A DNA stretch of 64,000 nt, taken from NCBI GenBank assembly GCA_965237415.1, contig CBDEFM010000002.1, positions 1,696,001 to 1,760,000 on the forward strand, in the 5' to 3' direction. The first letter of the stretch is position 1. Each line of letters begins with the position of its first letter. A model generated the notes under the pieces. It saw nothing but the letters and a program-made list of their open reading frames with translations. It did no database searches and was not told the origin of the DNA. Positions 31,633-50,155 of this stretch are shown here, piece by piece. The DNA comes from Alphaproteobacteria bacterium (lineage in GTDB: Bacteria; Pseudomonadota; Alphaproteobacteria; UBA828). The position numbers were made by a program, and so were the translations under genes.

Positions 31633-31732
31633 CATTGCGCTGCGCCCCGTTCCTACTCTGTCGGCCGGACAGCGCCGCGCAGACCATGACCTTGGTGAGA
31701 AATGCGGGCTAAGGTTCGGAGAAAGAGAGAAT

Positions 31733-33412: not shown

Positions 33413-33573
33413 TTAGATCCTCTGCCCACACATAGGCGCAGTCTGGCCGTTTTCGGTCGCAATTCCGATAGTGCAGCGAACGCCGCGCGCCCACCCTTTC
33501 CCGAAGGGTGCGGCCGCGGGCAAACAACGATAGATTCCCAGCCATGGCAGCAGGTTCAGACGGCGGCGAAACC

Positions 33574-35109
33574 ATGACGAAGCGAGGCGGTCGCCGGGGC
33601 GGCGGGCGGGCGGCACGGCACGCGGAGCGGGTCGGCGGCAAGATCGAGCTTCTGCGTTACATCACACGCAACATTCCCTCGGTCGACCTCCTCAGCGATG
33701 AGGGGCTGGCGCTGATCGAGGAGAACGCGGAAACGATCCTCGAGGAGATCGGGATCGACTTCCGCGAGGATGCGGAGGCGCTCGAGCTCTTCAAGGATGC
33801 CGGCGCCGATATCGACGGTGAGCGGGTGCGCTTCCCGCGCGGGCTCGCGCGTCACCTGGTGTCGACCGCGCCTGCTTCCTTCACGCAGCTCGCACGCAAT
33901 CCCGAGCGATCGGTCGAGATGGGCGGCCGCAATCTCGTCTTCGCGCCGGTCTATGGCCCGCCCTTCATCTACGACATCGAGAAGGGGCGCCGCTACGCCC
34001 AGCTCGAAGACTTCGAGAACATCGTCAAGCTCGCCTACATGACGCCCTCGATGCACCACTCCGGCGGCACGGTGTGCGAGCCGGTCGACGTTCCGGTCAA
34101 CAAGCGCCATCTCGACATGGTCTACGCGCACATGCGCTATTCCGACAAGCCGTTCATGGGGTCGGTCACGCACCCCGAGCGCGCGGCGGATTCGGTCGAG
34201 ATGGCGAAGATCCTCTTCGGCGCAGACGTCGTCGATACCCAGACCGTGATGGTCAGCCTGATCAACGCCAACTCGCCGATGACCTTCGATGCCACCATGC
34301 TGGGTGCGCTCAAGGTCTATGCCCGTGCCAACCAGGGCAACCTCGTCACGCCGTTCATCCTGGCGGGCGCGATGGCGCCGGTCTCCCTTGCCGGCACGAT
34401 GGCGCAAACGCTGGCGGAGGCCCTGGCGGGCATGGCGCTCGTCCAGCTCTGCCGGCCGGGGGCGCCGGTCATCTTCGGCAGCTTCCTCAGCTCGATGTCG
34501 ATGCAGACCGGCGCACCGACCTTCGGCACGCCCGAGGCCACGCTCGCCATCTTCGGCCTCGCGGCGCTGGCCCGCCGGCTCGGCGTCCCGTTTCGCAGCG
34601 GCGGCTCGCTCACCGCATCGAAGTTGCCCGACGCGCAAGCGGCTTATGAAAGCGCCCAGACGCTATTGCCGACCGTACTGGCGGGCGCCAACTTCGTTCT
34701 CCATGGCGCCGGCTGGCTCGAAGGCGGACTGGCCAGCGGCTACGAGAAGTTCATCCTCGATGCGGACCAGATGGGCATGATGCAGGTCCTGGCGCGCGGC
34801 TACGACCTGTCCGCCAACGGCCAGGCGATGGACGCGATCAGAGAGGTCGGCCCGGGCAGCCACTATCTCGGCTGCAGCCATACGCAGGCGAATTTCGAGA
34901 CCGCCTTCTACCGCTCCGCTGTCGCCGACAATTCGAGCTACGAGCAGTGGCAGGCCGACGGCTCCAAGGATGCGACCGCGCGGGCACACGATATCTACAA
35001 GTCGATGCTGGCCAGCTACGAGGCGCCGCCCATCGACCCTGGGGTGGATGAGGCGCTCAAGGAGTTCATCGCCAAGAAGAAAGCGTCGATGCCCGACGCC
35101 TTCGCCTAG
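33574..35109 (+). CDS. Trimethylamine methyltransferase (MttB) family corrinoid methyltransferase, non-pyrrolysine type
   Basis: FAPVYGPPF, GGTVCEP.D, INANSP, GAPTFGTPE, DAQAAYES, LHGAGWLEGGL; no in-frame TAG. Confidence 0.92.
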   Translation: MTKRGGRRGGGRAARHAERVGGKIELLRYITRNIPSVDLLSDEGLALIEENAETILEEIGIDFREDAEALELFKDAGADIDGERVRFPRGLARHLVSTAPASFTQLARNPERSVEMGGRNLVFAPVYGPPFIYDIEKGRRYAQLEDFENIVKLAYMTPSMHHSGGTVCEPVDVPVNKRHLDMVYAHMRYSDKPFMGSVTHPERAADSVEMAKILFGADVVDTQTVMVSLINANSPMTFDATMLGALKVYARANQGNLVTPFILAGAMAPVSLAGTMAQTLAEALAGMALVQLCRPGAPVIFGSFLSSMSMQTGAPTFGTPEATLAIFGLAALARRLGVPFRSGGSLTASKLPDAQAAYESAQTLLPTVLAGANFVLHGAGWLEGGLASGYEKFILDADQMGMMQVLARGYDLSANGQAMDAIREVGPGSHYLGCSHTQANFETAFYRSAVADNSSYEQWQADGSKDATARAHDIYKSMLASYEAPPIDPGVDEALKEFIAKKKASMPDAFA

Positions 35110-35124
35110 TACGGTCCGGCCGGG

Positions 35125-35476
35125 CCCCCGGACCATGGTGCGGTGCAGGATGCGGGGCTTCTGCGCCAGGATCGCGCCATGCGTCGATTATTTTCCCGCG
35201 CGCGTATCCGCGCATCTTGCTCCCGCGCACGTAGCCGATCAGTTTGCCGCGCGCGTATCCGCGCGACGCAGTGCACGAACGAGCGAGCCGAGCCGGGCGC
35301 GATAGTCCGCAATTCTCACCAGGGTCGCGCCCCGCGCCTGGGGGGCGCGTCCCTTGATTCCGCGCGCACGACCCTGCGGGCGTGCGCGACATCCCACTCA
35401 TCCCACTTAATCCCGCTTAATCCCGGACAAGAATTTGTGTCTCGCCCGACGTGGAGGGGCAGAACCGGGCCGCGAC
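35125..35476 (+). repeat. Dispersed element copy 1 (palindromic box, short ORF, ATCCC decamer array)
   Basis: 5' box and 3' array shared with 44865-45625 and 49636-49938; 20-bp exact match ACCCTGCGGGCGTGCGCGAC (35371-35390 = 49762-49781). Confidence 0.85.
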
Positions 35477-35505
35477 CGTGGCGGGGGGATCGGCGTCAGG
35501 ACTGA
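35179..35505 (+). CDS. Putative element-borne small Arg-rich ORF (108 aa)
   Basis: ATG 46 bp after the CCATGG box, as in the other copies; reads in frame through TLRACAT and SHLIPLNPG. Confidence 0.35.
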   Translation: MRRLFSRARIRASCSRARSRSVCRARIRATQCTNERAEPGAIVRNSHQGRAPRLGGASLDSARTTLRACATSHSSHLIPLNPGQEFVSRPTWRGRTGPRPWRGDRRQD

Positions 35506-37502
35506 CGGCGGCGGCGATTGCGGCGGCGGGCAGCCGATGGCGCTGCCGTCTCTGCATCGGGCAGCGTGACGTGCTGCGGCAGATGGACGTACGCCGCCGT
35601 GCCGTGGGGAATCGCCATGGCATCGACGAAGTGACGCTGGAACGCGGGCTCGACGGCGGTCTCTACTTTCTCGATGGCACGCACCACGGTCTCGATCTCG
35701 TCGCGGGCCGCGCAATCGAGCAGGGCGATCAGCGCGCCCGTGCCCGCGGCGTTGCCCGCAGCAGACACCTTGTCGAGCGGGCAATCCGGGATCATGCCGA
35801 GGACCATGGCGTAGAGCGGGTCGATATGGCTGCCGAAGGCGCCGGTCAGCACGATCCGGTCGACCGTCGCGATCTCGAAGCGGTCCATGAGCAGCCTGGC
35901 GCCGGCCATGAGCGCCGCCTTGGCGAGCTGGATGGCGCGCACGTCGTTCTGATGGACGGAGATCGCAGGCTCGCCGGGGTAGAGCAGATAGCGGAAGGTC
36001 CGCCCCTCCTCCACGATACGCGCGGTGCGTGCCTGGGCACTGCCGGCGATCGTTCCGTCGGCGAGCAGGATGCCGGCGAGGTACATCTCGGCCAGCGCCT
36101 CGATGATCCCCGAGCCGCAGATGCCGGTGACGCCGGTGGCGGCGGTGGCCGCGGCGAACCCCTCCTCGTCGGACCAGAGGTCGCAACCTATCACCCTGAC
36201 CCTGGCCTCCAGCGTGTCCCGGTCGATACGCACCCGCTCGATCGCGCCGGGTGCCGCGCGCTGGCCGGCTTCGATCTGCGCGCCCTCGAAGGCCGGGCCG
36301 GTGGGCGACGACGCGGCCAGCAGCCGCTCCCTGTTGCCGAGCACGATCTCGGCATTGGTGCCGACATCGACGATCAACACCGTCTCCTCGGCCCGGTGCG
36401 GGGCTTCGGACAGAACGACGCCCGCCGCGTCGGCCCCCACGTGGCCGGCGACGCAGGGCAGCACGTAGACCCGCGCGCCGGCGTTGATATCGAGGTCGAT
36501 GTCGCCAGCCCTCAGCGTCAGCCCGTCCGACCGCGCGAGCGCGAAGGGGGCACCGCCCAGCTCGGTCGGGTCGATGCCGAGCAACAGGTGGTGCATGATC
36601 GGATTGCCGACGAAGGTCGCGTTCAGGATGTCGCCCCGCTCTGCGCCCGCCTCGTCCGCGACCTCGCCGATCAGCGCGTTTATCGCGCCACGCACGGCCT
36701 CGGTGAGCTCGGCCTCGCCGCCGGGGTTCATCATCACGTAGGAGACGCGGCTCATGAGGTCCTCGCCAAAGCGGATCTGAGGATTCATGCGCCCGGCGGA
36801 GGCCACGACCTCACCGCTCGAAAGCTCCGCCAGGTGGCAGGCGATGGTGGTCGAGCCGATGTCGAAGGCGGCGCCGAAGGCCCGGTCGCGGAAGCCGGGC
36901 CAGACGGCGACGATGCGCGTAGCCCCATGGACGGCGACCGTTACCGACCACTCGCCATCGCGAAGCGCGCGCTGGAGGCCTTGCAGGACGTGCAGGTCGC
37001 AGGCGAGATCGCTGAGCTCCCATTGGTCGCTGAGCGCATCGGCGAGGCGCTCGAAGTCGCCGCGCGGATTGTGCATGTCGGGCTCGGCGACCTCGACATA
37101 GTGCAGTCGGACGGCGGGATCGATGGTGAAGTCGCGCGCTTCGGCCCGCTTGCGCACGACCTGCTTGTGGACCTGGCTCTCGGGCGGCACGTCGATGACG
37201 AGGTCGCCCTGGATGAGCGCCGAGCAGCCCAGCCGGCGGCCCTCGGCGAGGGTGCGGCGGGAGGCATAGCGCGCCTCCTTCTCACCTGGCGGGCTCAGAT
37301 GGTCTGGCGCGCTCTCGATCCCGAACTTGGCGAAGTGGCCCGTGCCCGCCTCGACCTGACAGCGGCCGCAGAGGCCCCGGCCCCCGCACACCGAATCGAG
37401 ATCGACGCCGATGGAGCGGGCGGCATCGAGAACCGACGTGCCAATCGCGAACCGCCCGCGCTTGCCGGACGGGGTGAAGACGACGAACGCGGGTTCGGTC
37501 AT
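35496..37502 (-). CDS. ASKHA-domain reductive activator of corrinoid proteins (RACo/DUF4445) with 2Fe-2S domain
   Basis: CGGRGLCGRC, DIGSTT, VGNPIMHHL, GHVGAD, DVGTNAE, GPAFEG, GICGSG, GNAAG. Confidence 0.92.
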   Translation of the reverse strand: MTEPAFVVFTPSGKRGRFAIGTSVLDAARSIGVDLDSVCGGRGLCGRCQVEAGTGHFAKFGIESAPDHLSPPGEKEARYASRRTLAEGRRLGCSALIQGDLVIDVPPESQVHKQVVRKRAEARDFTIDPAVRLHYVEVAEPDMHNPRGDFERLADALSDQWELSDLACDLHVLQGLQRALRDGEWSVTVAVHGATRIVAVWPGFRDRAFGAAFDIGSTTIACHLAELSSGEVVASAGRMNPQIRFGEDLMSRVSYVMMNPGGEAELTEAVRGAINALIGEVADEAGAERGDILNATFVGNPIMHHLLLGIDPTELGGAPFALARSDGLTLRAGDIDLDINAGARVYVLPCVAGHVGADAAGVVLSEAPHRAEETVLIVDVGTNAEIVLGNRERLLAASSPTGPAFEGAQIEAGQRAAPGAIERVRIDRDTLEARVRVIGCDLWSDEEGFAAATAATGVTGICGSGIIEALAEMYLAGILLADGTIAGSAQARTARIVEEGRTFRYLLYPGEPAISVHQNDVRAIQLAKAALMAGARLLMDRFEIATVDRIVLTGAFGSHIDPLYAMVLGMIPDCPLDKVSAAGNAAGTGALIALLDCAARDEIETVVRAIEKVETAVEPAFQRHFVDAMAIPHGTAAYVHLPQHVTLPDAETAAPSAARRRNRRRRQS

Positions 37503-37506
37503 GCCG

Positions 37507-38430
37507 TCACGCGCTGACGGCGGCGCCCTCCCGCCGGCGCCGGCGCCCCTCGCGCCGGCCGCGCCTGCCCTCGCCGCCCTCGCCCACCGGCTCGCGGAAG
37601 CGGGTGAGCCAGCGCGCGCAGTCGGGATCGTTGCCGTTCATCATGTCGGCGGCCATGACGGCGGCGATCTCCGCCTCGTGCAGCGGGTTCATGATGGCGG
37701 ATGTCAGACCCGAGCGCGCCGCCATACTGAGGAACGCCGCGTTCACGCTCGGCCGGTTGGGCAGCCCGAAGCCAACGTTCGACGCGCCGCAGGTCGAGTT
37801 CACGCCGAGCTCCTCCTTGAGCCGGCGCATGATGGCGAAGGCCTGCACGCCCGCCGTGTTGATCGCACCGATCGGCATGACCAGCGGATCGACCACCACG
37901 TCCTCCTTGGGGATGCCGTGGTCCATGGCGCGTTCGACGATCTTCCTGGCGATCCCGAAGCGGACGTCCGGGTCTTCCGAGATGCCGGTCTCGTCATTGG
38001 AGATGGCGACGACGGCGCAGCCGTACTTCTTCACCAGCGGCAGCACGGATTCCAGCCGTTCCTCCTCGGCGGTGACCGAGTTGAGCAGCGGCTTGCCTTG
38101 ATAGACCGCGAGCCCGGCCTCGAGGGCCGCCACGATCGAGCTGTCGATGGAGAGCGGCAGGTCCACCAGCGACTGCACGAGCTGGATGCAATCGGCGAGG
38201 ATTTTGGGCTCGTCGGCGAGCGGCACGCCCGCGTTGACATCGAGCATGTGCGCGCCGGCCGCGACCTGTGCCAGCGTGTCCCTTTCCACCCGCGAATAGT
38301 CGCCCGCCGCCATCTCGGCCATCAGCAGCTTGCGGCCGGTGGGATTGATCCGCTCCCCGATGATGCAGAAGGGCTCGTCGAAGCCGATCACCACCTCCTT
38401 CGTGGCGGAACTGACGACGGTGCGGGTCAT
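37507..38430 (-). CDS. Pterin-binding methyltetrahydrofolate:corrinoid methyltransferase module
   Basis: IIGERINPTGRK, LDVNAG, LSIDSS, DPLVMP, GASNVGFGLP. Confidence 0.92.
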   Translation of the reverse strand: MTRTVVSSATKEVVIGFDEPFCIIGERINPTGRKLLMAEMAAGDYSRVERDTLAQVAAGAHMLDVNAGVPLADEPKILADCIQLVQSLVDLPLSIDSSIVAALEAGLAVYQGKPLLNSVTAEEERLESVLPLVKKYGCAVVAISNDETGISEDPDVRFGIARKIVERAMDHGIPKEDVVVDPLVMPIGAINTAGVQAFAIMRRLKEELGVNSTCGASNVGFGLPNRPSVNAAFLSMAARSGLTSAIMNPLHEAEIAAVMAADMMNGNDPDCARWLTRFREPVGEGGEGRRGRREGRRRRREGAAVSA

Positions 38431-39113
38431 GGCGCCTCTCGGTTCTCGCCGGCGGCGGCGGCGGCCTCGATGAAGTCCGCCAGCTCGCCATAGCCGACAT
38501 GACGATGGACATAGTTGAGCCCCAACCGTTCGGCCGCCACGCGGGCCTTGGCTTCGAGCGCCGCGTCGCGGACCTGGGAGATGTAGACGACGTTCGTGTA
38601 GTTGCCGAAATAGTCGTCCCGCAGCTCGGGCCAGCGGTCGAGGCCTAAGCCCTCGATGATCAGCCGGTCGAAGTGGCGCACCATGTAGTCGGTCAGGAAG
38701 AACTGGGTCGGGTCGTCGTCGGTGATGGCGGCGAACGCGTCCTGCCCGGTGTAGAAGGCGTAGCAGTGCGGCCCCTCGATGCGCTCCACACCCTCTTCCT
38801 CGATCACCTTGTCGAGCAGGCCGCCGGTGCCGCAATCGCCGTAGGCCACGAAGATGGCGCGATAGTCGCCCTTATTGGCCTGGATCTTCGCGCGCACCGC
38901 CTCCGGGATCAGGTGCGGCCGGTTATGCAGCTTGGCGGGCAGGCAGGTGATGTCGATGTGTTCGAAGCCATTGGCCGCGCGGAAGTCGACGATCTCGCGC
39001 GCCAAGGCCCCGCAGGCGATGACGAGGGCACGGGCCGGGCCGGCACTCGCGAATGCGGCCTCGTCGTCGACCGAGAGGTCGGCGTGCTCGGGCGGCGCCA
39101 TCCGGGCTGTCAT
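38427..39113 (-). CDS. DUF1638 domain protein
   Basis: IACGALARE, LPAKLHNRP, YGDCGTGG, GPHCY, FFLTDY. Confidence 0.85.
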   Translation of the reverse strand: MTARMAPPEHADLSVDDEAAFASAGPARALVIACGALAREIVDFRAANGFEHIDITCLPAKLHNRPHLIPEAVRAKIQANKGDYRAIFVAYGDCGTGGLLDKVIEEEGVERIEGPHCYAFYTGQDAFAAITDDDPTQFFLTDYMVRHFDRLIIEGLGLDRWPELRDDYFGNYTNVVYISQVRDAALEAKARVAAERLGLNYVHRHVGYGELADFIEAAAAAGENREAP

Positions 39114-39122
39114 AGGCAGGGC

Positions 39123-39833
<711 letters not shown>

Positions 39834-39973
39834 CGGTCCCCGTCCTGTCCCGCTCGTGCCTGCGCTGGATACCGAGAGAAGCGTGCGCTCGCCCCCGGCA
39901 CAGCCCGTCTTCCTGGGTCTCGGCTCAACGCCCGAACCCACTTGTCTATTCAATTACAGGCGCGTCTCAAGAC

Positions 39974-40010
39974 TGTTCCAGACTCGACGCCGGCTTGCCG
40001 GTTCACGACA
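39974..40010 (-). promoter_or_regulatory. Putative AraC/GbdR-type tandem operator upstream of the corrinoid operon
   Basis: Minus strand TGTCGtgaaccGGCAAgccggCGTCGagtctGGAAC: two GTCG half-sites 21 bp apart, next to a GlxA-type regulator gene. Confidence 0.4.
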
Positions 40011-40071
40011 AAGCGTCCGCTGTCGCCAGGCACGGCTGTCGGTCGCGCTTCGTCGCGGGTGGGAAGACGCG

Positions 40072-41085
40072 CTATGCGGGCCCGGATGCCGGCAACGCGT
40101 CGTCGATCGCCCAGGAGGGCGCCGCCATGGCGGTCAAGCGCTTCGTCTCCCGCGGCGCGTGGCCGAAGTGCAGACGATAGGACTTGGAGAAATGCGACGC
40201 GGACACGAACCCGGTCGCCAGCGCCACATTCGTCACCGACATGCAGGTCTGCTGCAGCAGAGCGCGCGCCCTGTTCAGCCGCATCTCCAGGTAATAGCGG
40301 CTCGGCGTGCAGTGCAGGTATTTCAGGAACAATCGCTCGAGCTGCCGGGTCGACAGTCCGATCTCGCTGGCCAATTCGGTCTGACTGAGCGGAGCCTCGA
40401 TATTCTCCGACATGACGCTAATCGTGGAGAGAAGTTTGGGCTGGCTGACCGCAAGACGAAGGCGCAGCGCCATTCTCTGATGGTCCTCTTCGCCCCTGAT
40501 GCGCTCGCAAACCAATGCTTCGGAAACGGACGCGGCGAGCTCGTAACCGTGATGGCGATTGATGAAGCTGAGCATCATGTCCGACGCCGCCATGCCGCCC
40601 GCGCAGGTGTATCGGTTGCGGTCGATGACGAATATGTCCTCTCTCACCTCGATGTCGGGAAAATCCTCGATGAAACCCGGCAAGTTCTCCCAGTGAATCG
40701 TGCAGCGATAACCGTCGAGCAGCCCGAGGCGCGCCAGAATGTGGCTGCCGGTGCAGAGAGAACCGATGTTGGTTCCGCGGCGCTCGATCTGTCGCAGCCA
40801 GCTTGCGAGCCGCTTGTCCTCGAAGAGGTGGGTCTCAATGCCGCCGCATACGAAGACAGTCGAGAGCCGGTCGATCGACGCGATCGACATATCGGCGGTG
40901 ACGCTCACTCCAGCCGATGAGGCCACCGCCTCTCCGTCCATGGAGACGGTACGCCATTCATAGAGTGTCTGACCGCTCATGTAATTCGCGAGCCGGAGCG
41001 GCTCGATCGCACTCGAGAACGCCCCGAGCGAGAATTTCGGGACCATCAGGAATCCGAATTGGCGTCCCGGGTCGGTGGTTCGCAT
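40072..41085 (-). CDS. GlxA-family (GbdR-like) AraC transcriptional regulator
   Basis: EPLRLAN, CTIHWEN, YTCAGG, LSTRQLERLF, ATGFVSASHFSK. Confidence 0.92.
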   Translation of the reverse strand: MRTTDPGRQFGFLMVPKFSLGAFSSAIEPLRLANYMSGQTLYEWRTVSMDGEAVASSAGVSVTADMSIASIDRLSTVFVCGGIETHLFEDKRLASWLRQIERRGTNIGSLCTGSHILARLGLLDGYRCTIHWENLPGFIEDFPDIEVREDIFVIDRNRYTCAGGMAASDMMLSFINRHHGYELAASVSEALVCERIRGEEDHQRMALRLRLAVSQPKLLSTISVMSENIEAPLSQTELASEIGLSTRQLERLFLKYLHCTPSRYYLEMRLNRARALLQQTCMSVTNVALATGFVSASHFSKSYRLHFGHAPRETKRLTAMAAPSWAIDDALPASGPA

Positions 41086-41316
41086 CGCATCGCCGCCGGT
41101 CAGGCGTCTCCCTGCAACGTCGAGCTCGGCGCAAACGCTATTCTCACATGCCGTCGCCCATTCTCTCCGCCGTGGACAACAAGACTACGACAAGTGAAGT
41201 CCGACCCCCAAGTCCGATCGGCCCGGACGCCAGTCGATCGACTCAGCCCCGGCCGTGGTCGCCAAGGGGCCGTTCTTGGCACCCGACTTCGTGGCCAGCC
41301 AGCTCGGACCCTGCTC

Positions 41317-42444
41317 TCATCGGCGCAGGCGGCCGGGGCCGAGGCGCTCTGCGGTGATACCGTGCGCGGCGACCGCCTCGGGCAGTGGCTCGCCGGTGAC
41401 GAGCGCTGCGGTGACCGCGCCAAGCGCCGGCGCGGTCATGATGCCGGCGCCCCCCTGGCCCGCCAGCCAGAAGAAGCCCTCGGCCGCGATGTCGAAGCCC
41501 GCCACCGGCTGCCGGTCGCGCACGAAGCTCCTGAGACCCGCCCACTTGTTGCGTATGTGGCGGATGTCGAGGGTCGTCGCCTGCATGATGCGGTCGGCGC
41601 CGATGGCGATGTCGAGCTCCTCGGGATAGACGTCGCAGGGTTCCGACGGGGTTTCGTCGGCGGGCGAGCCCAGAATCCGGCCGGCATCGGGCTTGAGGTA
41701 GAAGGCATCGTCGATGTCGTGCACCATCGGCCAGTCGTCGACGCCGCCGTCCGCCGGCCCGTCGAAGATGAACGCGGTCCGGCGTTTCGGTTCAAGACCG
41801 ATGGGCGCGAGGCCCGCAAGTGCAGCCACGGCGTCGCACCAGGCGCCGGCGGCGTTGACCACGACCGGCGCGCAGTAGGCGCCGGCCGGCGTCTCCGCGT
41901 GCCAGAGTCCGCGTGCACGCGCGAGCGCCGTCACCCCCGCCTCCGTCATCAACGTCCCGCCGCGCGCGCGCAGGCCCCGCAGAAAACCTTGATGCAGGGC
42001 AGCGACGTCGATCTCCTCCGCCTCCGGCTCCAGAACCGCGCCGGCGACATAGTCCTCACGCAACGGTACGGGCTGCTCCAGAGCCTGGCTGGCGTCGAGG
42101 CGCGCCAGAGTCGGCACACGTTGCCGGTTCTCCTCGTAGAAGCGATCGAGCATGTCGATCTGATCGGCGTGGCCGACATACAGTACCTGGCGCGGGCTGA
42201 GCAGCGGCGAGGCCGCGAAGCCGGACGGCGGGTCGGTGAGGAATGAGCGGCCCGTCACGGCCAGCCCCTTCGTCAGCGGGCCGCCATAGGTTTCCATGTA
42301 CATGGCGGCGGAGCGCCCGGTCGAGTGGTAGCCCGGCACGTCCTCCTGCTCGAGCACGACGACGCGCCCCCGCTCCGCAAGCCAGAATGCCGCCGAGGCG
42401 CCCGCCATGCCGGCGCCGACGACCAGGAAGTCGCAGCGTTCCAT
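41317..42444 (-). CDS. DAO-family FAD-dependent oxidoreductase (D-arginine dehydrogenase-like)
   Basis: VVGAGMAGAS, GYHSTGRSAA, VNAAGAW, WAGLRSF, GQGGAG. Confidence 0.9.
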   Translation of the reverse strand: MERCDFLVVGAGMAGASAAFWLAERGRVVVLEQEDVPGYHSTGRSAAMYMETYGGPLTKGLAVTGRSFLTDPPSGFAASPLLSPRQVLYVGHADQIDMLDRFYEENRQRVPTLARLDASQALEQPVPLREDYVAGAVLEPEAEEIDVAALHQGFLRGLRARGGTLMTEAGVTALARARGLWHAETPAGAYCAPVVVNAAGAWCDAVAALAGLAPIGLEPKRRTAFIFDGPADGGVDDWPMVHDIDDAFYLKPDAGRILGSPADETPSEPCDVYPEELDIAIGADRIMQATTLDIRHIRNKWAGLRSFVRDRQPVAGFDIAAEGFFWLAGQGGAGIMTAPALGAVTAALVTGEPLPEAVAAHGITAERLGPGRLRR

Positions 42445-42577
42445 CGCGCGCATTCTATGCGGCGCGCCCCCCGGCCGAAACGGCGCGGCTCCGCGTTTGC
42501 GGGTACGCCACCGCCGCTCTCGGCAAGCCGCGCCTGGGCCGCTAGTCTGGCGCCACCGAAGAGAGCGGGAGCGGACC

Positions 42578-43393
42578 ATGGAAATTTTGTGCGAGGGCCG
42601 GCGCGCGGTGGTCACCGCCGGCGGATCGGGGATTGGGCGTGTCATCGCGGAGACGCTGGCGGCCAACGGCGCTGCGGTCTTCACCTGCGACGTCCAGCCC
42701 GGACTGGTCGAGGACGTGCGGAGTGCTGCGATCGGCGCGACCCTGGCCGATGTCGCCGATCCCGCCCAGGTTGACTTGCTGTTCGAGGCCGCGGTGGAGG
42801 CCATGGGCGGCGTCGACATCCTCATCAACAACGCCGGGATCGCCGGACCCACCGCGCATGTGGAGGCGATCGAGCCCGCCGACTGGGACCGCACGATTGC
42901 GGTAAACATCTCCGGCCAGTTCTACTGCGCCCGCCGCGCGGTGCCCCTGATGCGCGCGGCCGGCCGTGGCGCCATCGTCAACATCTCGTCGACCGCAGGC
43001 CGCATGGGTTTCCCGCTCAGGCTCCCCTATGCGACATCGAAGTTCGCCATCACCGGCCTGACCAAGACGCTGGCGCTGGAGCTCGGCCCTGCCCAGATCA
43101 GCGTCAACGCCATTCTGCCGGGCTACATCCTCAACGAGCGGGGCGCGCGCGTGGTCCGCGCCAAGGCCGAGGCCGCCGGCCGTACGGTGGAGGAGATGCA
43201 GGCGATCATCCTCCGCAACATCGCCATGCGCAGCAGCATCGCGGAACAGGAGATCGCGGACCTCGCGCTCTACCTCTGCTCCGACTCCGGCCGCCACATC
43301 TCGGGCCAGCTCTTGGGCGTCGACGGTGCCTTCGACACCTACATGGGCATGGACAATCTCGACGACCCACCGGCGGTAACAGGCGCCTCGTGA
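42578..43393 (+). CDS. SDR oxidoreductase
   Basis: TAGGSGIG, NNAGIAGP, YATSK, VNAILPG. Confidence 0.92.
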   Translation: MEILCEGRRAVVTAGGSGIGRVIAETLAANGAAVFTCDVQPGLVEDVRSAAIGATLADVADPAQVDLLFEAAVEAMGGVDILINNAGIAGPTAHVEAIEPADWDRTIAVNISGQFYCARRAVPLMRAAGRGAIVNISSTAGRMGFPLRLPYATSKFAITGLTKTLALELGPAQISVNAILPGYILNERGARVVRAKAEAAGRTVEEMQAIILRNIAMRSSIAEQEIADLALYLCSDSGRHISGQLLGVDGAFDTYMGMDNLDDPPAVTGAS

Positions 43394-44133
43394 TCGTCCT
43401 CTTCACCGATTTCGGGCCGGGCGGGCCCTACACGGGCCAGATGAAGGCCGTGCTCGCGCGCGAGGCGCCGGGCACGCCTGTGATCGACCTCGCGGACGAC
43501 CTGCCCGCCTGCGAGCCCGAGCCCGCCGCCTATCTGCTCGCGGCGTTCGCGCCGGCGTTTCCGCCGGGCGCGGTCTTTGTCTGCGTGGTCGACCCCGGCG
43601 TCGGCAGCGCCAGGGCGCCGGTCGCGCTCAGTGCCGGCGGGCGCTGGTATGTCGGCCCCGACAACGGCCTTCTCGCCATCGTTGCCCGACGCGCCGGCGA
43701 TGCCCAGTGGTTCACCATCACCTGGAGACCGCCCACCCTCTCCGCCTCCTTCCACGGCCGCGATCTCTTCGCACCGGTGGCGGCCCGGTTGGCCCGCGGC
43801 GAAGCGGTGCCGGGAACGGCGATCGAGGGCGCCGCAACGGTCGGTGCCGCATGGCCGGAAGACCGCGCGGCAATCGTCTATATCGACCCCTACGGCAACG
43901 CGATGACGGGGATACGCGCGGCCCAACTGGCGGAGGACACGGTCGTCGTCGCGGGCGCCCGGCGGCTCGGGCGGCTCCGCACGTTCTCCGACGCGGCGCC
44001 GGGGGCGGCCTTCTGGTACGAGAACGCAAACGGGCTCGCCGAAATCGCGGTCAACCAAGGCCGGGCGGATCGGGTGCTGGGGCTCAGGGTGGGAACACCG
44101 GTCAGCATCGAGACGGCGGGTCGCGACGGATGA
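43390..44133 (+). CDS. DUF62 family SAM hydroxide adenosyltransferase (chlorinase/fluorinase superfamily)
   Basis: LFTDFG, VVDPGVG, GPDNG, SFHGRDLF, YIDPYGN, EIAVNQG. Confidence 0.9.
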   Translation: MIVLFTDFGPGGPYTGQMKAVLAREAPGTPVIDLADDLPACEPEPAAYLLAAFAPAFPPGAVFVCVVDPGVGSARAPVALSAGGRWYVGPDNGLLAIVARRAGDAQWFTITWRPPTLSASFHGRDLFAPVAARLARGEAVPGTAIEGAATVGAAWPEDRAAIVYIDPYGNAMTGIRAAQLAEDTVVVAGARRLGRLRTFSDAAPGAAFWYENANGLAEIAVNQGRADRVLGLRVGTPVSIETAGRDG

Positions 44134-44855
44134 CGGGCTGGCGGCCGAACGGGGACCAGATTCGCGCGGGCGCACTTGCCGGTGCCGACCTCTCGCGCTT
44201 CGACCTGCAGGGCTTTCACTTCCGCCGGGCCGACCTGCGCGGGGCGAGCTTCGCCGGAAGCATCCTTCGCGAGGTCGATCTCTGGTCCGCCGACCTCACC
44301 GGCGCCGACCTCACCGGCGCGAACCTGCGCCTGGCGACGTTCAAGGGCGCAAACCTGCAAGGCGCGCGGCTCGCCGGCGCGGACCTCTGGAGCGCCGATC
44401 TCAAGGTCGCCGACCTGGGCGGCGCCATTCTCTCGGAGTGCAATCTCGCTCAAGCCGAGCTCGCCGGCGCGAAGTGCCGGGGGGCGGACTTCAGCTGCGC
44501 TGAGCTCTACTGCGCCGACCTTCGCCTCGCCGACCTGGAGGACGCCAATCTCGGCCGCGCGGACGGGCGCCTCGCGAAGCTGGAGGAGGCGGTGCTGATC
44601 GGCGCCAACCTGCGCGATGCGAACTTCTCGGGCGCGAGCTTCAAGCGCGCGCGGCTGGCCACGGCCGACCTGGGAGGCGCCAACCTGCGCGAAGCGAATT
44701 TTCGCGAGGCCGACCTGATTCGTGCCGACTTTCGCGGGGCAGAGGTCGCCGACGCCTTCTTCGGCCAAGCCAATCTCGACGGCACCGTGATGCCGGACGG
44801 CACCATCGAATCGACCACCCTGCGTCACTGGGCGCCGCCCGAGGAAGACGCGTAG
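44130..44855 (+). CDS. Pentapeptide repeat protein
   Basis: Continuous A[D/N]LxG/xA repeats ending in LDGTVMPDG. Confidence 0.93.
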   Translation: MTGWRPNGDQIRAGALAGADLSRFDLQGFHFRRADLRGASFAGSILREVDLWSADLTGADLTGANLRLATFKGANLQGARLAGADLWSADLKVADLGGAILSECNLAQAELAGAKCRGADFSCAELYCADLRLADLEDANLGRADGRLAKLEEAVLIGANLRDANFSGASFKRARLATADLGGANLREANFREADLIRADFRGAEVADAFFGQANLDGTVMPDGTIESTTLRHWAPPEEDA

Positions 44856-44864
44856 GCGTCCGAG

Positions 44865-45625
44865 CCCCGCACCATGGTGCGGTGGAGGGCGCAGGCTCGG
44901 CGCGCCAGCATCGCGTCATGCAAAACGAAACCCAAAAGACAACGACAGCCGCGACGTTCGGGCGTTCCTCGATCGCGCGGCTGCCGCCGGAGCTTCGCGA
45001 GGCCGTCGATGCGGCCATCGCAGACGGCGCCACCATCGACGAAATCGCGGATCTCATCCGGGGCGAGGGCGGCGCGTGCTCGCGCTCGGCCGTCGGCCGC
45101 TACACCAAGAACGTCCGCGACCTGATTCGCCAACAGCAGGAGGCCGACCGCGCCAACGAGGCGTGGGTGCGCGCGCTCGGCGAGCGCGCCGAGGGTCGGG
45201 CCGGGCTCATCCTGATCGAGACCCTGCGGACTTTGACGCTCTCCACCCTGGCCGAACTCAGCAAGCGCGAGACGCCGCCGACGCCGGAAGAGCTTGGCCG
45301 TCTCTCGCTGGTCCTCAAGCGCATCGAGGGCACGGACAAGCTCCGCCTCCAGCGGGAGCAGGCGGCGGCGAAGGCAGCCAGGGCCGCGCCCGGCGCGGGG
45401 CAGGCACCGGGGCAGGCACCGCCCAGGAAGGGCCTCTCGCCCGAGGCCGTCGCCGCCATCCGCGAGGTCGTCGAGGGGAGGCCCCGCCCGCCTGGGCGGG
45501 CCGTCTCATCGGCGCCGGTCGACCCGTGGAATCCTTCGGAATCCCACTTAATCCCACTTAAACCCGGCGAATCCCGCACAGGAATTGAGTTTGGCCCGAG
45601 TGGGATGGCGGAGCCGGACAGCGAC
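44865..45625 (+). mobile_element. Dispersed element copy 2, carrying a Mu-like Gp27/DUF3486 gene; mobility inferred only
   Basis: Perfect palindrome GCACCATGGTGC (44869-44880); decamer array 45521-45580; 3' tail aligns with copy 1 up to GCGAC. Confidence 0.6.
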
Positions 45626-45697
45626 AGTCGCGAAATTGCGGGCTACGCGCCCACGTCGACGATGGCCACCACTGGGCCGCCGCCCTGCGGGCCCTGA
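44918..45697 (+). CDS. DUF3486 / Mu-like phage Gp27 family protein
   Basis: [32 protein letters not shown], helical middle region, [13 protein letters not shown]; low-complexity tail overlaps the convergent gene. Confidence 0.78.
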
Positions 45698-46737
45698 TGC
45701 ATCGCATCGACCGAGACGAACACGGCGGGATCGCCGATCGCCGCCGCCGCGACACCGCCCACGGCGCCCTTGGAATGGCGGTGATGGTGGACGTCGGAAT
45801 CGTCCAGCATGATCTGGCGGCGCCCGCGCAAGCGCGCGGTGCGGTCGGCCTCGCACTTGATGAAGCAGTTGACGAGCTTGTCGCCGAGATCGGCGGCGCG
45901 CGGGCGCTCCGGCAGGTTGAGGCCGGCGTTACGGATGCCGTCGTAGATGCCGTCGATGTCGAGGGCGTCCTGCATCACGCCGTGGCCGATGCGGAAGCGC
46001 CCGCCGGCCCCCGGCGCGTTGCCGAAGAGGACGATCTGCCCGCGGTCGAGCTCGACGCCAGAGGAGCAGGAGGCGACCGAGGAGTAGAGATCAAGATTGC
46101 GGCAGATTTCGTGGGCCGCCGGCATGCCGACTTCGCCGAGCGCGACGGCAATGCCGAGGCCGGTGGTGCCGTTGGAGACCCCCATCGATTCATGGACCTC
46201 GCAGGCCACGGTCTCGCCCCGCCCGTGCGCGTCCTGCACCGTGTCGATGGTGAGCAGCGGCGTCTTGGTCTGCACGTAGTGGACATTCGCAGGGTCGCCG
46301 ATGCCCGCATCGGCCATCGCCGCGCGCACGCTGTCGGCGATCTTCTCCACCATCGCCGGCCGGCCGATGTCCTCGGGCAGGATTGGCGCGCTCATGGCGG
46401 TCCCCATGGCGAGGCGCAGCGTGTCGTCGGGCCCGCTCTCATCGTTGCGGGCGAAGACGGTCGCATGGGGGGTGAGCACGCCATCGCAGCCGCCCGACCA
46501 GACCATGGGGATTTCGCCGACCTCGACTTCGCTGCGCGTGCCGTGCTTGAGGAGGACGCCGCGGAAGGCGCTGTCCGACAGGATGCGGGTGAAGTCGTTG
46601 ACCCCGCCGTTGCCCTCCGTCTTACCGATGACGGCGACGACGGAATCCGCCGCCATGCGGCCCGACGCGATGAGTTCCTCCAGGCCCGAGGCATCCGCGA
46701 CCGATTTGATCTCGATCTTCGCAACGTCGATCGCCAT
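45643..46737 (-). CDS. Ring-opening cyclic amide hydrolase (AtzD/barbiturase family), barbiturase-like
   Basis: [43 protein letters not shown]. Confidence 0.9.
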
Positions 46738-46777
46738 GTCTCTCTCCCCTCCGGCGGCAGAGCGCCGCCCGCCACTC

Positions 46778-48031
46778 TCAGGACCAGGCGGTGCGCCGCT
46801 GGGTCACGGTTTCGGCGACGACGCGGCCGCGCTTGATCACGTGGGTGCGGTCCGCACGCCTGGTCAGCGCTTCCAGCGGGTCGGCCGCGTCGATAACCAC
46901 CAGATCGGCGACGCAGCCGGGCGCGGCGCCATAGTCGGTGAGGCCCATGGCGCGCGCCGCGGCGCCGGTCTGCATGTCGAAGACCGTCTCGATCTCCTGC
47001 GGGCGGCTCATGTGCGCCGCGTGGGTCGCGAGGAACATCACCTCCAGCGGATCCCCGCGCCCGAAGGGGTAGAAGGGATCGCGGATGCAATCCTGGCCAC
47101 AGGAGACGTTGACGCCGGCCTCCAGCAGTTCCTTCACGCGGGTGATGCCGCGCCGCTTCGGCTGCGCGTCGCCGCGACCCTGGAGCATCAGATTGGTCGC
47201 CGGGTTCGCGATCATGTGGATGCCCGCGTCCCTCACGAGGCCGATGACCCGGTTGGCGTAGTCCTCCTCATAGCCCGCGAGCGCGCAGGTGTGGCCGGCG
47301 GTGACGCGCCCCTGCCAGCTCTGCGCCATCGTCTGCTCGGCCAGCACTTCGAGAGTCTTGGCGTCGGGGTCGTCGGTCTCGTCCACGTGCATGTCGATGT
47401 CGGCGTCGTGGTGCGCCGCGATCTCGAAGGCGAGCGCAATGTGGCGCGCGCTGTCCGCCGGCGTCGCCTCGTTGAAGGGCATGCCGCCCACCAGATCGGC
47501 GCCCGCCTCCATCGCCTTCCACATCAGATCGTCGGTGCCCTTGTCCTTGAAGATGCCCTCCTGCGGGAAGGCCACGATCTGAACGTCGGCGATGTCGCGG
47601 GTGCGCTCGCGCGCCTCAAGGACGCCTTCGAGCGGACGCAGGCCGCCGATGCTGTCCACATCGACATGGCTGCGAATTCGCGTGACCCCGTGAGCAACGG
47701 CGGACCGGATGGTGCGCGTCGCCCGCGCGGCGATCTCCTCCACGGTGTAGGCGCGCTTCCGCTCCCAGATGATCTCGATGGCCTCGTCGAGGGTGCCGGA
47801 GCGATTGGGCCTGACATCGTCGTTGATCTGCGCCTTGTCGAGGTGGATATGCGGCTCCAGAAAGCCGGCCACGCAAAGGCGCCCGCCGGCATCGATGGTG
47901 CGCTCGGCCGCGGCCGCACCCCCTGGGGGTGGGGCGACGAAGCGGCCGTCGTGCACGAAAAGGTCGCGCGGCGCTTCCTCCCGCCAGAGATGCGCACCCG
48001 TGATCGCCAGGTCGACCCGATCGTCCGTCAT
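46778..48031 (-). CDS. Cytosine deaminase-like metal-dependent amidohydrolase
   Basis: [45 protein letters not shown]. Confidence 0.9.
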
Positions 48032-48063
48032 CGTTCGCTCCTCCCTCAGACTCAGGCGCCTGC

Positions 48064-49509
48064 CTATGAGGCGCCGTCTCCCGCCGTGTCCGGCATGGTT
48101 GCCGACGCGACGACGCCCAAGCGGGCCAGCGTCTCCTCCCGGCCCAGCGCAACCATGACGGCGAAGATCCCAGGAGACGCGTGCGCACCCGTCAGTGCTG
48201 CCCGGAGCGGCTGCGCGATGGCGCCGAGCCCGACGTCCTCGTCCTCGACAAAGCCGCGGACGGCGCCTTCGAGAGCCGACTCGTCCCAGGCCGCGTTGTC
48301 CTGCAGGGCGGCTTTCAGACGGCTAAGGCGGGCCCGCGCCTCGCTGCCGCCCTCGCCGAGCAGCCGCGCCGCCTTGGGCGTCATGGCGAGCGGCCGATCG
48401 CACACCAGAAACGACAGATTGTCGGCAAGCTCGGGCAGCGTCTTCGCACGCGCCTTCGCCTCGGGCAGCAGGGCCGCGATGCGCCTGCGCCCTTCGTCCG
48501 TGGCGGCCGCCGGGTGGCGCTCGGCGAGTCGCTGCTCGACGCCGGCCAGCAGTTCAGAATCGGCGCTCTCGCGAATGTAATGGCCGTTGAGGCTCAGCAG
48601 CTTCTCCATGTCGAAGCGCGCAGCGCCGCGGTTCACCGCATCGAGGTCGAACCAGGCGACGGCCTGGGCGGTGTCGATGATCTCGTCGTCGCCGTGACTC
48701 CAGCCGAGCCTGAGCAGCGCGTTGCGCATGGCGGCGGGCAGAACGCCGAGCTCGGCATAGGCGCCGACGGCGACCGCGCCGTGCCGCTTGGAGAGCTTCG
48801 CGCCGTCGGGGCCGTGGATCAGCGGGATATGGGCGTAGGCCGGCGGCTCCCACCCAAGCGCGCGGAAGAGCTGGGTCTGGCGAAAGGCGTTGGTGAGGTG
48901 GTCGTCCCCCCGGATGGCATGGGTGATCCCCATGTCGTGGTCATCGACGACGACCGAGAGCATGTACGTCGGCGTGCCGTCGGCCCGTAGAAGCACCATG
49001 TCGTCGAGAGCGCTATTGTCGATCTGGACATCACGCTGTACCAGATCGGATATGATTAGTTCCCCCTCCTGCGGTGCCCGGAAGCGGATGACAGGGGCGA
49101 CGCCGGGCGGCGCCTCCGCCTCATCGCGGTTGCGCCAGCGCCCGTCGTAGAGCGCGGCCCGGCCCTGGGCGCGTGCCTCGGCGCGCATGACCTCCAGCTC
49201 CTCCGGCGTGCAATAGCAGCGGTAGGCCCCGCCGGCGGCGAGGAGCCCGTGCGCGACCTCGACATGGCGCTGCCTGCGCTCGGACTGGCGCACGATTTCG
49301 CCGTCCCATTCGAGGCCGAGCCAAGTCAGCCCGTCGATGATCGCGGCGATTGCCTCGGGCGTCGAGCGCTTGCGATCAGTGTCCTCCAGCCGAAGCCGAA
49401 ATGTGCCGCCGTGGTGGCGGGCATAGAGCCAGTTGAAGAGGGCGGTCCGCGCGCCACCGAGATGCAGCATGCCGGTTGGCGATGGCGCGAAGCGCGTGAC
49501 GACGCTCAT
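48064..49509 (-). CDS. gltX: Glutamate--tRNA ligase
   Basis: [15 protein letters not shown] (HIGH), IRGDDHL, KLSKRHG (KMSKS). Confidence 0.96.
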
Positions 49510-49635
49510 CTGCGGTCTCACCCCCGGCGGATAGCACTGCGGTTGGCCACGGATCGGAACGGTCGAGCGTTTAGCATATCGCCCGGCTGCAGGCGACCGG
49601 CCGCGGAGGAGGAAAGGCGGTCTCCCCTCTCTACT

Positions 49636-49938
49636 CCCCCGGACCATGGTGCGATGTGCAGTGCCAGGCTCCTGCGTCAGGCTCACGCCATGGAGCGCCA
49701 AACTGGGTTGGTCGCGGTGGGCACGTTGAGCGAGCGGGCGGGAAACGATCTCGCGCTCAACACCCTGCGGGCGTGCGCGACCCGGGTCCGGGCCGCGGCC
49801 GCCAGCAACAACTGTCTGCCGGGCCATCCAGTGGGAGGCTTCGCCGTGAACGCTCCGTCGGGCCGCCGGCACCGGTCCGGCGGAACCCCACTCATCCCGC
49901 CTATCCCACTTAATCCCGCTGAATCCCGCCTCAAATTA
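49636..49938 (+). repeat. Dispersed element copy 3, in the gltX/comEC divergent intergenic region
   Basis: CCCCCGGACCATGGTGCG identical to copy 1; ATG at 49690; five CCC tracts at 49886-49927. Confidence 0.85.
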
Positions 49939-50106
49939 ACTCAAAGGCTTATCCCCTTGCTTCCGGTTCGTCTAGATATTGACCTACGCAATGCAACGGT
50001 TTCAGCCGGCGGACTCAGAAAATCACAGCGCAGCCCGTGCCTTATCCGGGCCTTCCAGCAGTGGGAAGGCACGCAACATCATGCGCTCCCGGAGCCAAGG
50101 GGATAA
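49690..50106 (+). CDS. Putative element-borne small ORF (138 aa)
   Basis: ATG 46 bp after CCATGG; in-frame [12 protein letters not shown] and IPLNPAESR. Confidence 0.35.
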
Positions 50107-50155
50107 GCCTTTTAACTCATTCCCGCATCGAGCGGGATGCCGGTGGAGCGCCCGC

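Follow-up and report, generated by a model that had tools for sequence, protein, structure and literature searches.

Several pac phages have their pac site in or beside terS, the gene for the small terminase subunit (TerS), and the small terminases of satellites such as the Staphylococcus aureus pathogenicity islands (SaPIs) and the phage-inducible chromosomal islands (PICIs) come with a pac site of their own. Transposons and miniature inverted-repeat transposable elements (MITEs) normally carry transposases or nothing, and among the gene transfer agents (GTAs) RcGTA is an example with a multi-locus genome. For phage Mu, PMC4390567 describes a Mor dimer binding a 16-bp element centred at -43.5, where it takes the place of a -35 element, and PMC2582627 names Plys and PI among the Mu promoters and describes the late promoters as having a -10 element, with -35 hexamers not typical. 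Here we describe a family of dispersed elements, three copies of which lie in a window of 64,000 bp (G000:C2:1696001-1760000) of the genome of an alphaproteobacterium known from assemblies only (G000; 4.75 Mb in 2 contigs, 66.7% G+C). Each copy starts with a promoter-like box and ends in C-rich repeats, and one of them holds a terS-like gene. We consider the family, with a probability of roughly 0.6, to consist of genus-wide dispersed cassettes of a late promoter and terS that supply TerS in trans, are co-induced by a Mor-like activator and were spread by MITE association and recombination.

A whole-genome scan with the two motifs (the box, allowing up to 3 mismatches to a 20-mer, and the array, consisting of the ATCCCACTTA unit) returned 83 boxes and 67 arrays in G000. 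A same-strand array was found 108-1217 bp downstream of 63 of the 83 boxes, by which 60 of the 67 arrays are paired; an array lies upstream of a single box and on the opposite strand at 4 boxes. Random placement of the boxes gave a mean of 0.7 pairings and a maximum of 4 (200 trials), and reversed-pattern controls gave 0-1 matches per genome. The association between box and array is real and far above chance, and the three window sites are copies of a repeat family with about 60 members per genome, in line with the expectation of the sequence-only reading that three copies in a short stretch meant many more elsewhere. By length the 63 elements comprise 52 short (108-425 bp), 4 mid-size (664-676 bp) and 5 long (~1.2 kb) ones and 2 others. 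No replichore bias of their orientation was seen by eye. Rfam at gathering thresholds found nothing in the elements (only 2 tRNAs and a PYLIS_3 match), and literature searches, with supplements and ISfinder outside their reach, gave no description of such a family.

The common layout of the three + strand sites, with an ATG 46 bp past the first C of CCATGG (35133 to 35179, 44872 to 44918 and 49644 to 49690), holds as originally described, and so does the frame that stays open from this ATG into the C-rich repeats in all three copies (copy 1 reads ..SHLIPLNPG..). The fixed spacing is real, but the ATG belongs to a conserved 57-bp module and, as 3' arm, to an imperfect inverted repeat formed with the box. 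The parts of the three copies, in window coordinates, are the following.

35110..35495, + strand: copy 1, a mosaic cassette with internal deletion, inserted between two convergent genes whose stops are 35107-35109 and, on the minus strand, 35496-35498
35128..35143, + strand: 16-bp dyad box of copy 1, CCGGACCATGGTGCGG; its centre lies 43.5 bp before the A of the ATG at 35179
35167..35181, + strand: -10-like CAGGAT (35167-35172), spacer and conserved ATG (35179-35181) of copy 1
35306..35330, + strand: internal sequence of copy 1, TCCGCAATTCTCACCAGGGTCGCGC, resembling the terminal inverted repeat (TIR) of a CTAG-targeting MITE family, with ATAG before it
35362..35390, + strand: hairpin module H of copy 1, of the repetitive extragenic palindromic (REP) kind, source of the translation 'TLRACAT'
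35391..35425, + strand: 9/10-bp repeat array of copy 1, ATCCCACTY A units
35440..35495, + strand: 3' tail of copy 1, containing the decamer core in inverted form (GTGGAG) and a degenerate end resembling a right TIR, directly against the stop of the convergent gene
44865..45642, + strand: copy 2, full cassette between convergent genes (stops 44853-44855 and 45643-45645), made up of promoter module, TerS gene, repeat block and 3' tail
44867..44882, + strand: perfect 16-bp dyad of copy 2, CCGCACCATGGTGCGG, centred 43.5 bp upstream of the ATG at 44918
44906..44911, + strand: -10-like hexamer CAGCAT of copy 2
44918..45697, + strand: TerS-like open reading frame (ORF) of copy 2, 259 amino acids up to the first stop, conserved until about 45585, with PF11985 covering residues 19-187
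45540..45577, + strand: decamer array of copy 2, encoding the C-terminal tail
45590..45642, + strand: 3' tail of copy 2, with an inverted decamer core GTGGGAT and a right TIR-like end ..GAAATTGCGGG, then CTA
49619..49942, + strand: copy 3, internally deleted cassette with an upstream C/T-rich module and a short tail
49639-49654, 49678-49683, 49690 and 49884-49931, + strand: dyad box, CAGGCT, ATG and repeats of copy 3, with the dyad centre again 43.5 bp before the A of the ATG
about 49753-49781, + strand: hairpin-like module of copy 3 (approximate, by eye)
49943..50111, no strand assigned: separate young 169-bp MITE outside the family, directly after copy 3, with target site duplication TTAACTCA

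Throughout the family the elements are ordered mosaics in which the order and orientation of the modules are constant. At the 5' side they consist of a REP-like hairpin (where present), the 57-bp 5' module from box to ATG, an optional 30-bp F module and either terS remnants or a whole terS; at the 3' side follow REP-like hairpins H/h (0 to 4), the 9/10-bp repeats, GGCGAATCCCGC, an AT-rich spacer and an inverted unit GTGGGA. The 3' repeat block is built of ATCCCACTT(A) units, encodes the conserved C-terminal tail of TerS and continues into a non-coding tail. Short elements retain the first codons of the long type (ATG CAG YGC GAG AGC GAG CGG) together with this C-terminal block, and for that reason we read them as internal-deletion derivatives. 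Copies 1 and 3 are, from their module content, such internally deleted and rearranged derivatives that acquired REP-like hairpins and MITE fragments. Their true terS remnants are the long-type first codons and the C-terminal repeat block; the 'ERA..TLR' traces that had been taken for remains of the copy 2 protein turned out to be the translated REP-like hairpin module (GCGCGCACGACCCTGCGGGCGTGCGCGAC). Relative to the repeats, the ATG stands in the TerS frame in 31 of 55 elements, 27 of which are open throughout (one third is expected by chance), and shared descent could explain part of this excess. Among the 56 elements with ORFs called on both flanks (by a heuristic based on G+C at the third codon position, GC3), 46 follow a gene of the same orientation and 29 stand between convergent genes.

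Alignment of 55 elements on the ATG places a palindrome ACCATGGT at a centre of -43.5 and a hexamer CAGGAT at -12..-7 (A at -11 in 50/55, T at -7 in 50/55); the offset of the ATG is 53 in most of these elements, and its A falls at the position expected for a transcription start. The two half-sites of the dyad change together between TerL leaders (GGACC..GGTCC versus GCACC..GGTGC), by which the palindrome is kept. A Mor-family ORF of 115 amino acids is present just after GemA at C2:1212934-1213281 (PF08765, 26.5 bits against a cut-off of 24.9, with a C-terminal helix-turn-helix), and a comparison with 20 other genomes of the genus showed orthologues of it in 15 of them and none in the three that are free of boxes. 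Because the geometry matches, a Mor-family gene is present and the box stands before lysis and protease units, a promoter of the Mu Mor/C type is the best reading of the box; that it is the end of a transposon is less likely. Promoter function, start site and activator binding are predictions from the sequence.

The likeness to the Mor/C promoters of Mu (Pm, Plys, PI, PP and Pmom) lies in the 16-bp dyad at -43.5 and the recognisable -10 element, the box also heads lysis and protease/head units, as Plys and PI do, and a Mor-family gene follows GemA. The differences are that the dyad sequence itself is presumably unrelated to that of Mu, that transcripts would be leaderless if the geometry holds, and that some 60 extra copies of the promoter are scattered outside the prophage. 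Besides the 3' repeat block, a full cassette would consist of a Mor/C-type promoter (a 16-bp dyad CCGSACCATGGTSCGG 43.5 bp upstream of the ATG, CAGGAT at -12..-7 and no -35 element) and a TerS gene that starts at the conserved ATG, yielding a leaderless mRNA if transcription starts there.

Comparison with protein profiles places the copy 2 product in the Mu gp27/small-terminase family, as had been proposed: it matches PF11985 (DUF3486) with 85.3 bits (cut-off 28) over profile positions 1-171 of 173 and PHROG 426 (terminase small subunit) with E = 4.9e-28; a long-type copy reaches 37.6 bits with PF11985. The gene is not a lone one, as the first description had it, since G000 holds 10 PF11985 matches, all within such elements: 4 mid-size genes (copy 2 and three paralogues, 86-87% identical at the nucleotide level) and five or six long-type ones (~300 amino acids). 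Over several genomes, 29 of 31 mid-type copies are open over the first 200 codons. A protein search returned 789 relatives, and PF11985 is present in all 120 among the matches listed. The relatives differ greatly in length, since the frame continues into the sequence beside each element. Only sub-threshold matches (HTH_32 and Sigma70_r4_2) were obtained for a helix-turn-helix in the copy 2 protein, and a PDB sequence search with the TerS-like protein gave 0 matches.

Boxes that lack an array precede phage genes in G000. They were found before TerL (box at C2:1226412; the protein matches Terminase_6C and PHROG 2, and Terminase_6N gave no match), before the portal gene (PF06074; box at 1229535), before a DUF5675-holin-DUF2730 unit and before two copies of a head maturation protease gene (PHROG 976), one of which is followed by scaffold and major head protein and the other by connector, major tail, chaperone, short tape measure and J-like protein. 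An S24 repressor, Gam, GemA and the Mor-family protein are encoded near the boxed phage genes. This set is well conserved in the comparison genomes: TerL is found in 16/20 (orthologues 78-95% identical in amino acids, adjoined by the same host gene in 9 genomes), the portal in 17/20, the major head protein in 16/20 (92-98%), PF11985 in 17/20 (up to 15 matches) and the box in 17/20 (12-80 matches each). The same three genomes (G012, G015 and G016) are without box, TerS, TerL, portal, capsid and Mor-like gene alike. Of the 13 genomes read at TerL, 12 have the box ~85 bp upstream of this gene, and of 15 read at the portal gene, 14 have it at a distance of ~104 bp upstream.

On these gene contents we regard the boxed phage genes as a Mu-like prophage that has degraded or been domesticated, is inherited vertically and is conserved in the genus, although the remnant may simply be defective. 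The suggestion of a domesticated, scattered regulon fared well to the extent that the box heads the TerL, portal, protease, lysis and tail units and that a Mor-family activator gene is present; the regulation itself is predicted. As in GTAs, the phage head, tail, terminase and lysis genes are intact, single-copy and syntenic across the genus, and they are split over several loci that share a regulatory element. Here, however, the head genes are of the Mu type, an early remnant (repressor, Gam, GemA and Mor) is kept, and TerS is multi-copy, dispersed and joined to a repeat array.

The positions of the TerS genes suggest how they could be connected to this remnant. Copy 2 lies between two host genes and not directly upstream of TerL; the sole conserved TerL (C2:1226498) is ~514 kb away. 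In canonical Mu-like prophages of relatives terS overlaps the start of terL and comes without box or repeats, and the prophage TerS of G013, G002, G006 and G010 adjoins TerL. The conserved TerL locus has no intact terS: a host gene takes that place in G000, 600 bp of repeats in G018, and in G003 a truncated, 42%-identical terS remnant without repeats lies upstream of TerL. Because no intact terS remains there, the conserved TerL has no TerS genes at its disposal other than those of the dispersed cassettes, and since the cassettes also carry the same promoter, they probably supply TerS in trans. The promoter module that heads the cassettes also heads the single-copy lysis, TerL, portal, protease-scaffold-capsid and tail units, and in the mechanism that we propose the Mor-like activator would co-induce the TerS cassettes and the particle genes, with TerS acting in trans. 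Like the SaPIs and PICIs, the cassettes have terS beside a candidate recognition site and away from the helper terL, but a cassette measures 0.7 kb and is not an island of roughly 15 kb, has no integrase or replication genes and occurs in many copies per genome.

The elements of the window are insertions, as follows from the finding that all three sites are empty in related species, which also answers the question of empty sites raised with the first description (3/3 window loci). The copy 1 site is empty in 8 species, with 13-33 bp between convergent stop codons, and in 6 further species it holds other repeats, mostly bracketed by CTAG-like tetranucleotides; one occupant in relatives, a 247-bp MITE, shares its right end with the cassette family. 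In G001, G002, G009, G011, G013 and G018 (L074-L079) at least four repeat types were seen at this site, as independent hits. The copy 2 site is empty in 15/20 genomes (stop codons overlapping or 2-54 bp apart; junction read in 8), G019 and G020 have other insertions there, and the upstream flank was not found in G007. The copy 3 site is empty in 19/20 genomes (flank matches about 27-110 bp apart) and filled in G004, the junctions having been read in 4 empty sites and in G004. At the copy 2 site G004 has a short element that shares the 3' part of copy 2, with the upstream gene moved away, and its ortholog of copy 1 lies at a rearrangement junction; these states of copies 1 and 2 indicate recombination between copies. 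In this closest relative (C1:2316-2414 kb; L055, L080, L081, L108 and L109) the flanks of copies 1 and 2 are parted by inversions or translocations, the breakpoints of which fall in the elements.

An abundant MITE family with TIR CCCGCATTTCTCACCACGGTCAYGG shares the genome (113 TIR matches, ~24 close pairs 122-448 bp apart). About a dozen of its TIR pairs span 262-264 bp and are flanked by YTAG..CTAG, and a lone TIR is present at 31684-31708 of the window. These flanks fit a TA duplication in CTAG, and ends of the form G..C would restore overlapping convergent stop codons; a CTAG target with TA duplication is behaviour of the IS630/Tc1 kind. The final 25 bp of 21 of the 63 elements are the right TIR of this MITE family, with YTAR next to it in 13 of the 21. 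Copy 1 is bracketed by CTAG..TCAG, its site being a CTAG hotspot of several repeat families, and no CTAG is found at copy 3. The cassettes thus resemble MITEs in being multi-copy, internally deleted and polymorphic between species, and in ending, in part, in a TIR of the co-resident ~263-bp family (CCCGCATTTCTCAC..). They differ from them in that most lack one or both TIRs, that the left boundary is the promoter module, and that the 'master' copies hold a terminase gene and not a transposase. With REP sequences and bacterial interspersed mosaic elements (BIMEs) they share the extragenic position at gene 3' ends and the ordered short palindromic units, H/h hairpins occurring in tandem in or beside cassettes; the promoter-like module, the ORF and the protein-coding master copy are additions to that pattern. 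The mechanism of spread, association with the TIR-MITE plus recombination between copies, is only partly explained. We would envisage that the cassettes inserted into short spacers at the 3' ends of genes, in many cases at a CTAG at convergent stops, probably in part as cargo or neighbours of the TA/CTAG-targeting MITE and in part via recombination between copies.

Several observations weigh against this scheme of dispersed, activator-driven terS cassettes. Both TIRs are present in only 3 of the 63 elements and the left TIR is internal in 3; in other species the 3' ends of the TerS cassettes have a different sequence, and the cassettes abut another repeat of 165 nt. No insertion sequence with matching ends was found among 15 IS630-like and IS4/5-like transposase loci examined in G000, a genome with 11 DDE_3 and 18 DDE_Tnp_1 matches. 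The idea of a non-autonomous mobile family is borne out by ~60 copies, by gene-bearing and deleted members and by empty sites, and not by an autonomous partner in G000. Of the Mu functions looked for elsewhere in the genome a Mor-family gene and TerL were found, and the Mu transposase profile PF02914 had no match in G000 nor in any control genome, so that absence of MuA is weakly shown. A scan of copy 2 for sigma-70 promoters and intrinsic terminators gave 0 sites, the sigma-70 result being uninformative for an activator-dependent promoter. Contigs from two metatranscriptome runs cover copy 2, with the repeat bin at ~50-70x relative to the flanks; two other runs, probably of DNA, gave ~64-70x, and because the depths match, the RNA coverage is no evidence of transcription. 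The imperfect inverted repeat of the box with the ATG region permits a hairpin reading in RNA or single-stranded DNA. For mid-type TerS the median ratio of non-synonymous to synonymous substitution rates (dN/dS) is 0.43 (median dS 0.32), a relaxed value for a gene whose function would be essential to the host. The co-occurrence of cassettes and particle genes has exceptions, namely G013, which has TerS copies and only prophage-like TerL (70%) and portal (52%) matches, G018 without a capsid match and G007 (67% complete) without TerL. Counts of conservation and co-occurrence are not independent, the genomes of the genus being mutually related, and the estimated contamination of G000 is 6%. Finally, G000 contains an inverted segmental duplication (C2:18000-25900 and C2:1132000-1140000), either a real rearrangement or an assembly artefact, that ends inside the head protease gene; one of its copies runs on into the scaffold and capsid genes and the other into tail genes.

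The alternative that survives best, though we think it unlikely, is that of a selfish or decaying repeat, in which a phage late promoter and terS were captured and amplified by a TIR transposon, have no role for the host or the prophage remnant and share the box only through common descent from a Mu-like phage. The MITE-like pattern of kept ends and deleted interiors, the MITE TIRs with YTAR flanks in a minority of elements, the mosaics with other repeats and the relaxed dN/dS agree with this, and the divergence of the copies (A modules ~10-20% by eye, in addition to that of the four mid-size TerS genes) suggests that the activity is old. Against it, nearly all mid-type TerS copies are intact despite a dS of ~0.3, the genome has no PF11985 genes besides these and its conserved TerL lacks a TerS neighbour, their presence or absence follows that of the particle genes across the 20 genomes, and the co-orientation of most elements with the upstream gene is unexpected from random insertion.

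It is quite unlikely, in our judgement, that the elements are primarily dispersed packaging signals, the arrays being pac- or cosB-like TerS sites from which headful packaging would start at ~60 positions and the short copies being pac-only. In its favour, all 4 mid-size copies and most of 28 loci from other genomes have the array where terS ends (3' side), the 9/10-bp periodicity and the single inverted unit downstream resemble multi-site binding arrays, and the arrays are linked to the cassette, as their pairing with the box shows, and not to the MITE ends, which only a third of the elements possess. The repeats are also coding, however, with tail residues that are invariant in 23 aligned proteins, which leaves room for another cause of their conservation; the same decamer occurs in two TerS subfamilies with different N-terminal regions; and such repeats are lacking in the truncated TerS of G003 and in the canonical prophage TerS of G013. 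No clear covariation of the decamer sequence with TerS subfamily was seen, mid and long types both having ATCCCACTTA. A combined form, to which we likewise assign a low probability, would make the cassettes packaging hitch-hikers, in which TerS together with its own recognition repeats, switched on by the Mor-type activator of the prophage, makes TerL and portal begin headful packaging at ~60 chromosomal sites.

An element acting in RNA, in which a 57-nt hairpin hides the start codon, the C-rich repeats function in the transcript and expression comes by read-through from the upstream gene (translational control in the Mu com/mom leader is comparable in idea), is very unlikely: the arms pair at ~10 of 12 positions with 122 G:T against 8 A:C oppositions, which favours the + strand, most copies fold into a long hairpin (mean minimum free energy -27.9 on the + strand and -23.8 on the - strand), elements tend to be co-oriented with the upstream gene and short leader ORFs that begin at the ATG run into the starts of TerL and portal, but there is no compensatory change (9.93 pairs with the own partner arm and 9.95 with shuffled partners), the G:T excess comes from two positions that hardly vary, no consensus long stem was obtained with RNAalifold from 63 5' modules, no Rfam family matches, and the dyad co-varies between TerL leaders as a DNA palindrome, which suits a dimeric DNA-binding protein.

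Some further observations concern the elements and their surroundings. The REP-like hairpin module is found in frame inside 3 of 5 long-type TerS genes (..LIPRARRCARARP..) with the ORF unbroken, for instance at C2:1504644(-), 1763542(-) and 3920196(+). A repeat of ~165 nt (..TCCCTCAACGGCGGGCGCTCGCTCCGCTCGCTTGCCTACGCGCC..; 27-30 copies) abuts TerS cassettes on either side in G000 and in other species, for example upstream of C2:1398607 and downstream of C2:2014212(-), both mid-type cassettes. A box variant precedes a 308-amino-acid ORF without Pfam or PHROG match (L086, G000:C2:642562-643500). Between TerL and portal, G000 has a gene with RTX calcium-binding repeats (PF00353; C2:1228074-1229426), where a 130-140-bp spacer is found elsewhere. 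The young 169-bp MITE next to copy 3 (TIR AAGGCTTATCCCC.., 8-bp duplication TTAACTCA) has copies that are 100% identical at C2:3413055 and C2:2568473, 97% at C2:356087 and 96% in G013, and it is missing from the G004 ortholog of the copy 3 site. The PYLIS_3 match (window 34609-34711; 48.7 bits against a gathering score of 38) lies just upstream of copy 1 inside an uninterrupted 533-amino-acid ORF (33508-35109), which looks like a non-pyrrolysine MttB-type gene because it has no in-frame stop.

If the cassettes are what we propose, a phage late promoter together with terS was amplified as a MITE-like family, and dozens of activator-type promoters would lie in host intergenic regions, so that induction of the prophage remnant could reach many host loci. 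Were the hitch-hiker reading true, the domesticated prophage would be a site-programmed gene transfer agent, with the short copies as pac-only parasites or as landing pads at which cassettes are exchanged by recombination. Packaging-site choice is, to our knowledge, an open question for GTAs, and the family, if this is right, would offer a built-in candidate for it. Under the preferred reading of dispersed late-promoter/terS cassettes, an uncultured alphaproteobacterial genus would possess a conserved system for particles of the Mu type, perhaps a gene transfer agent of a new kind.

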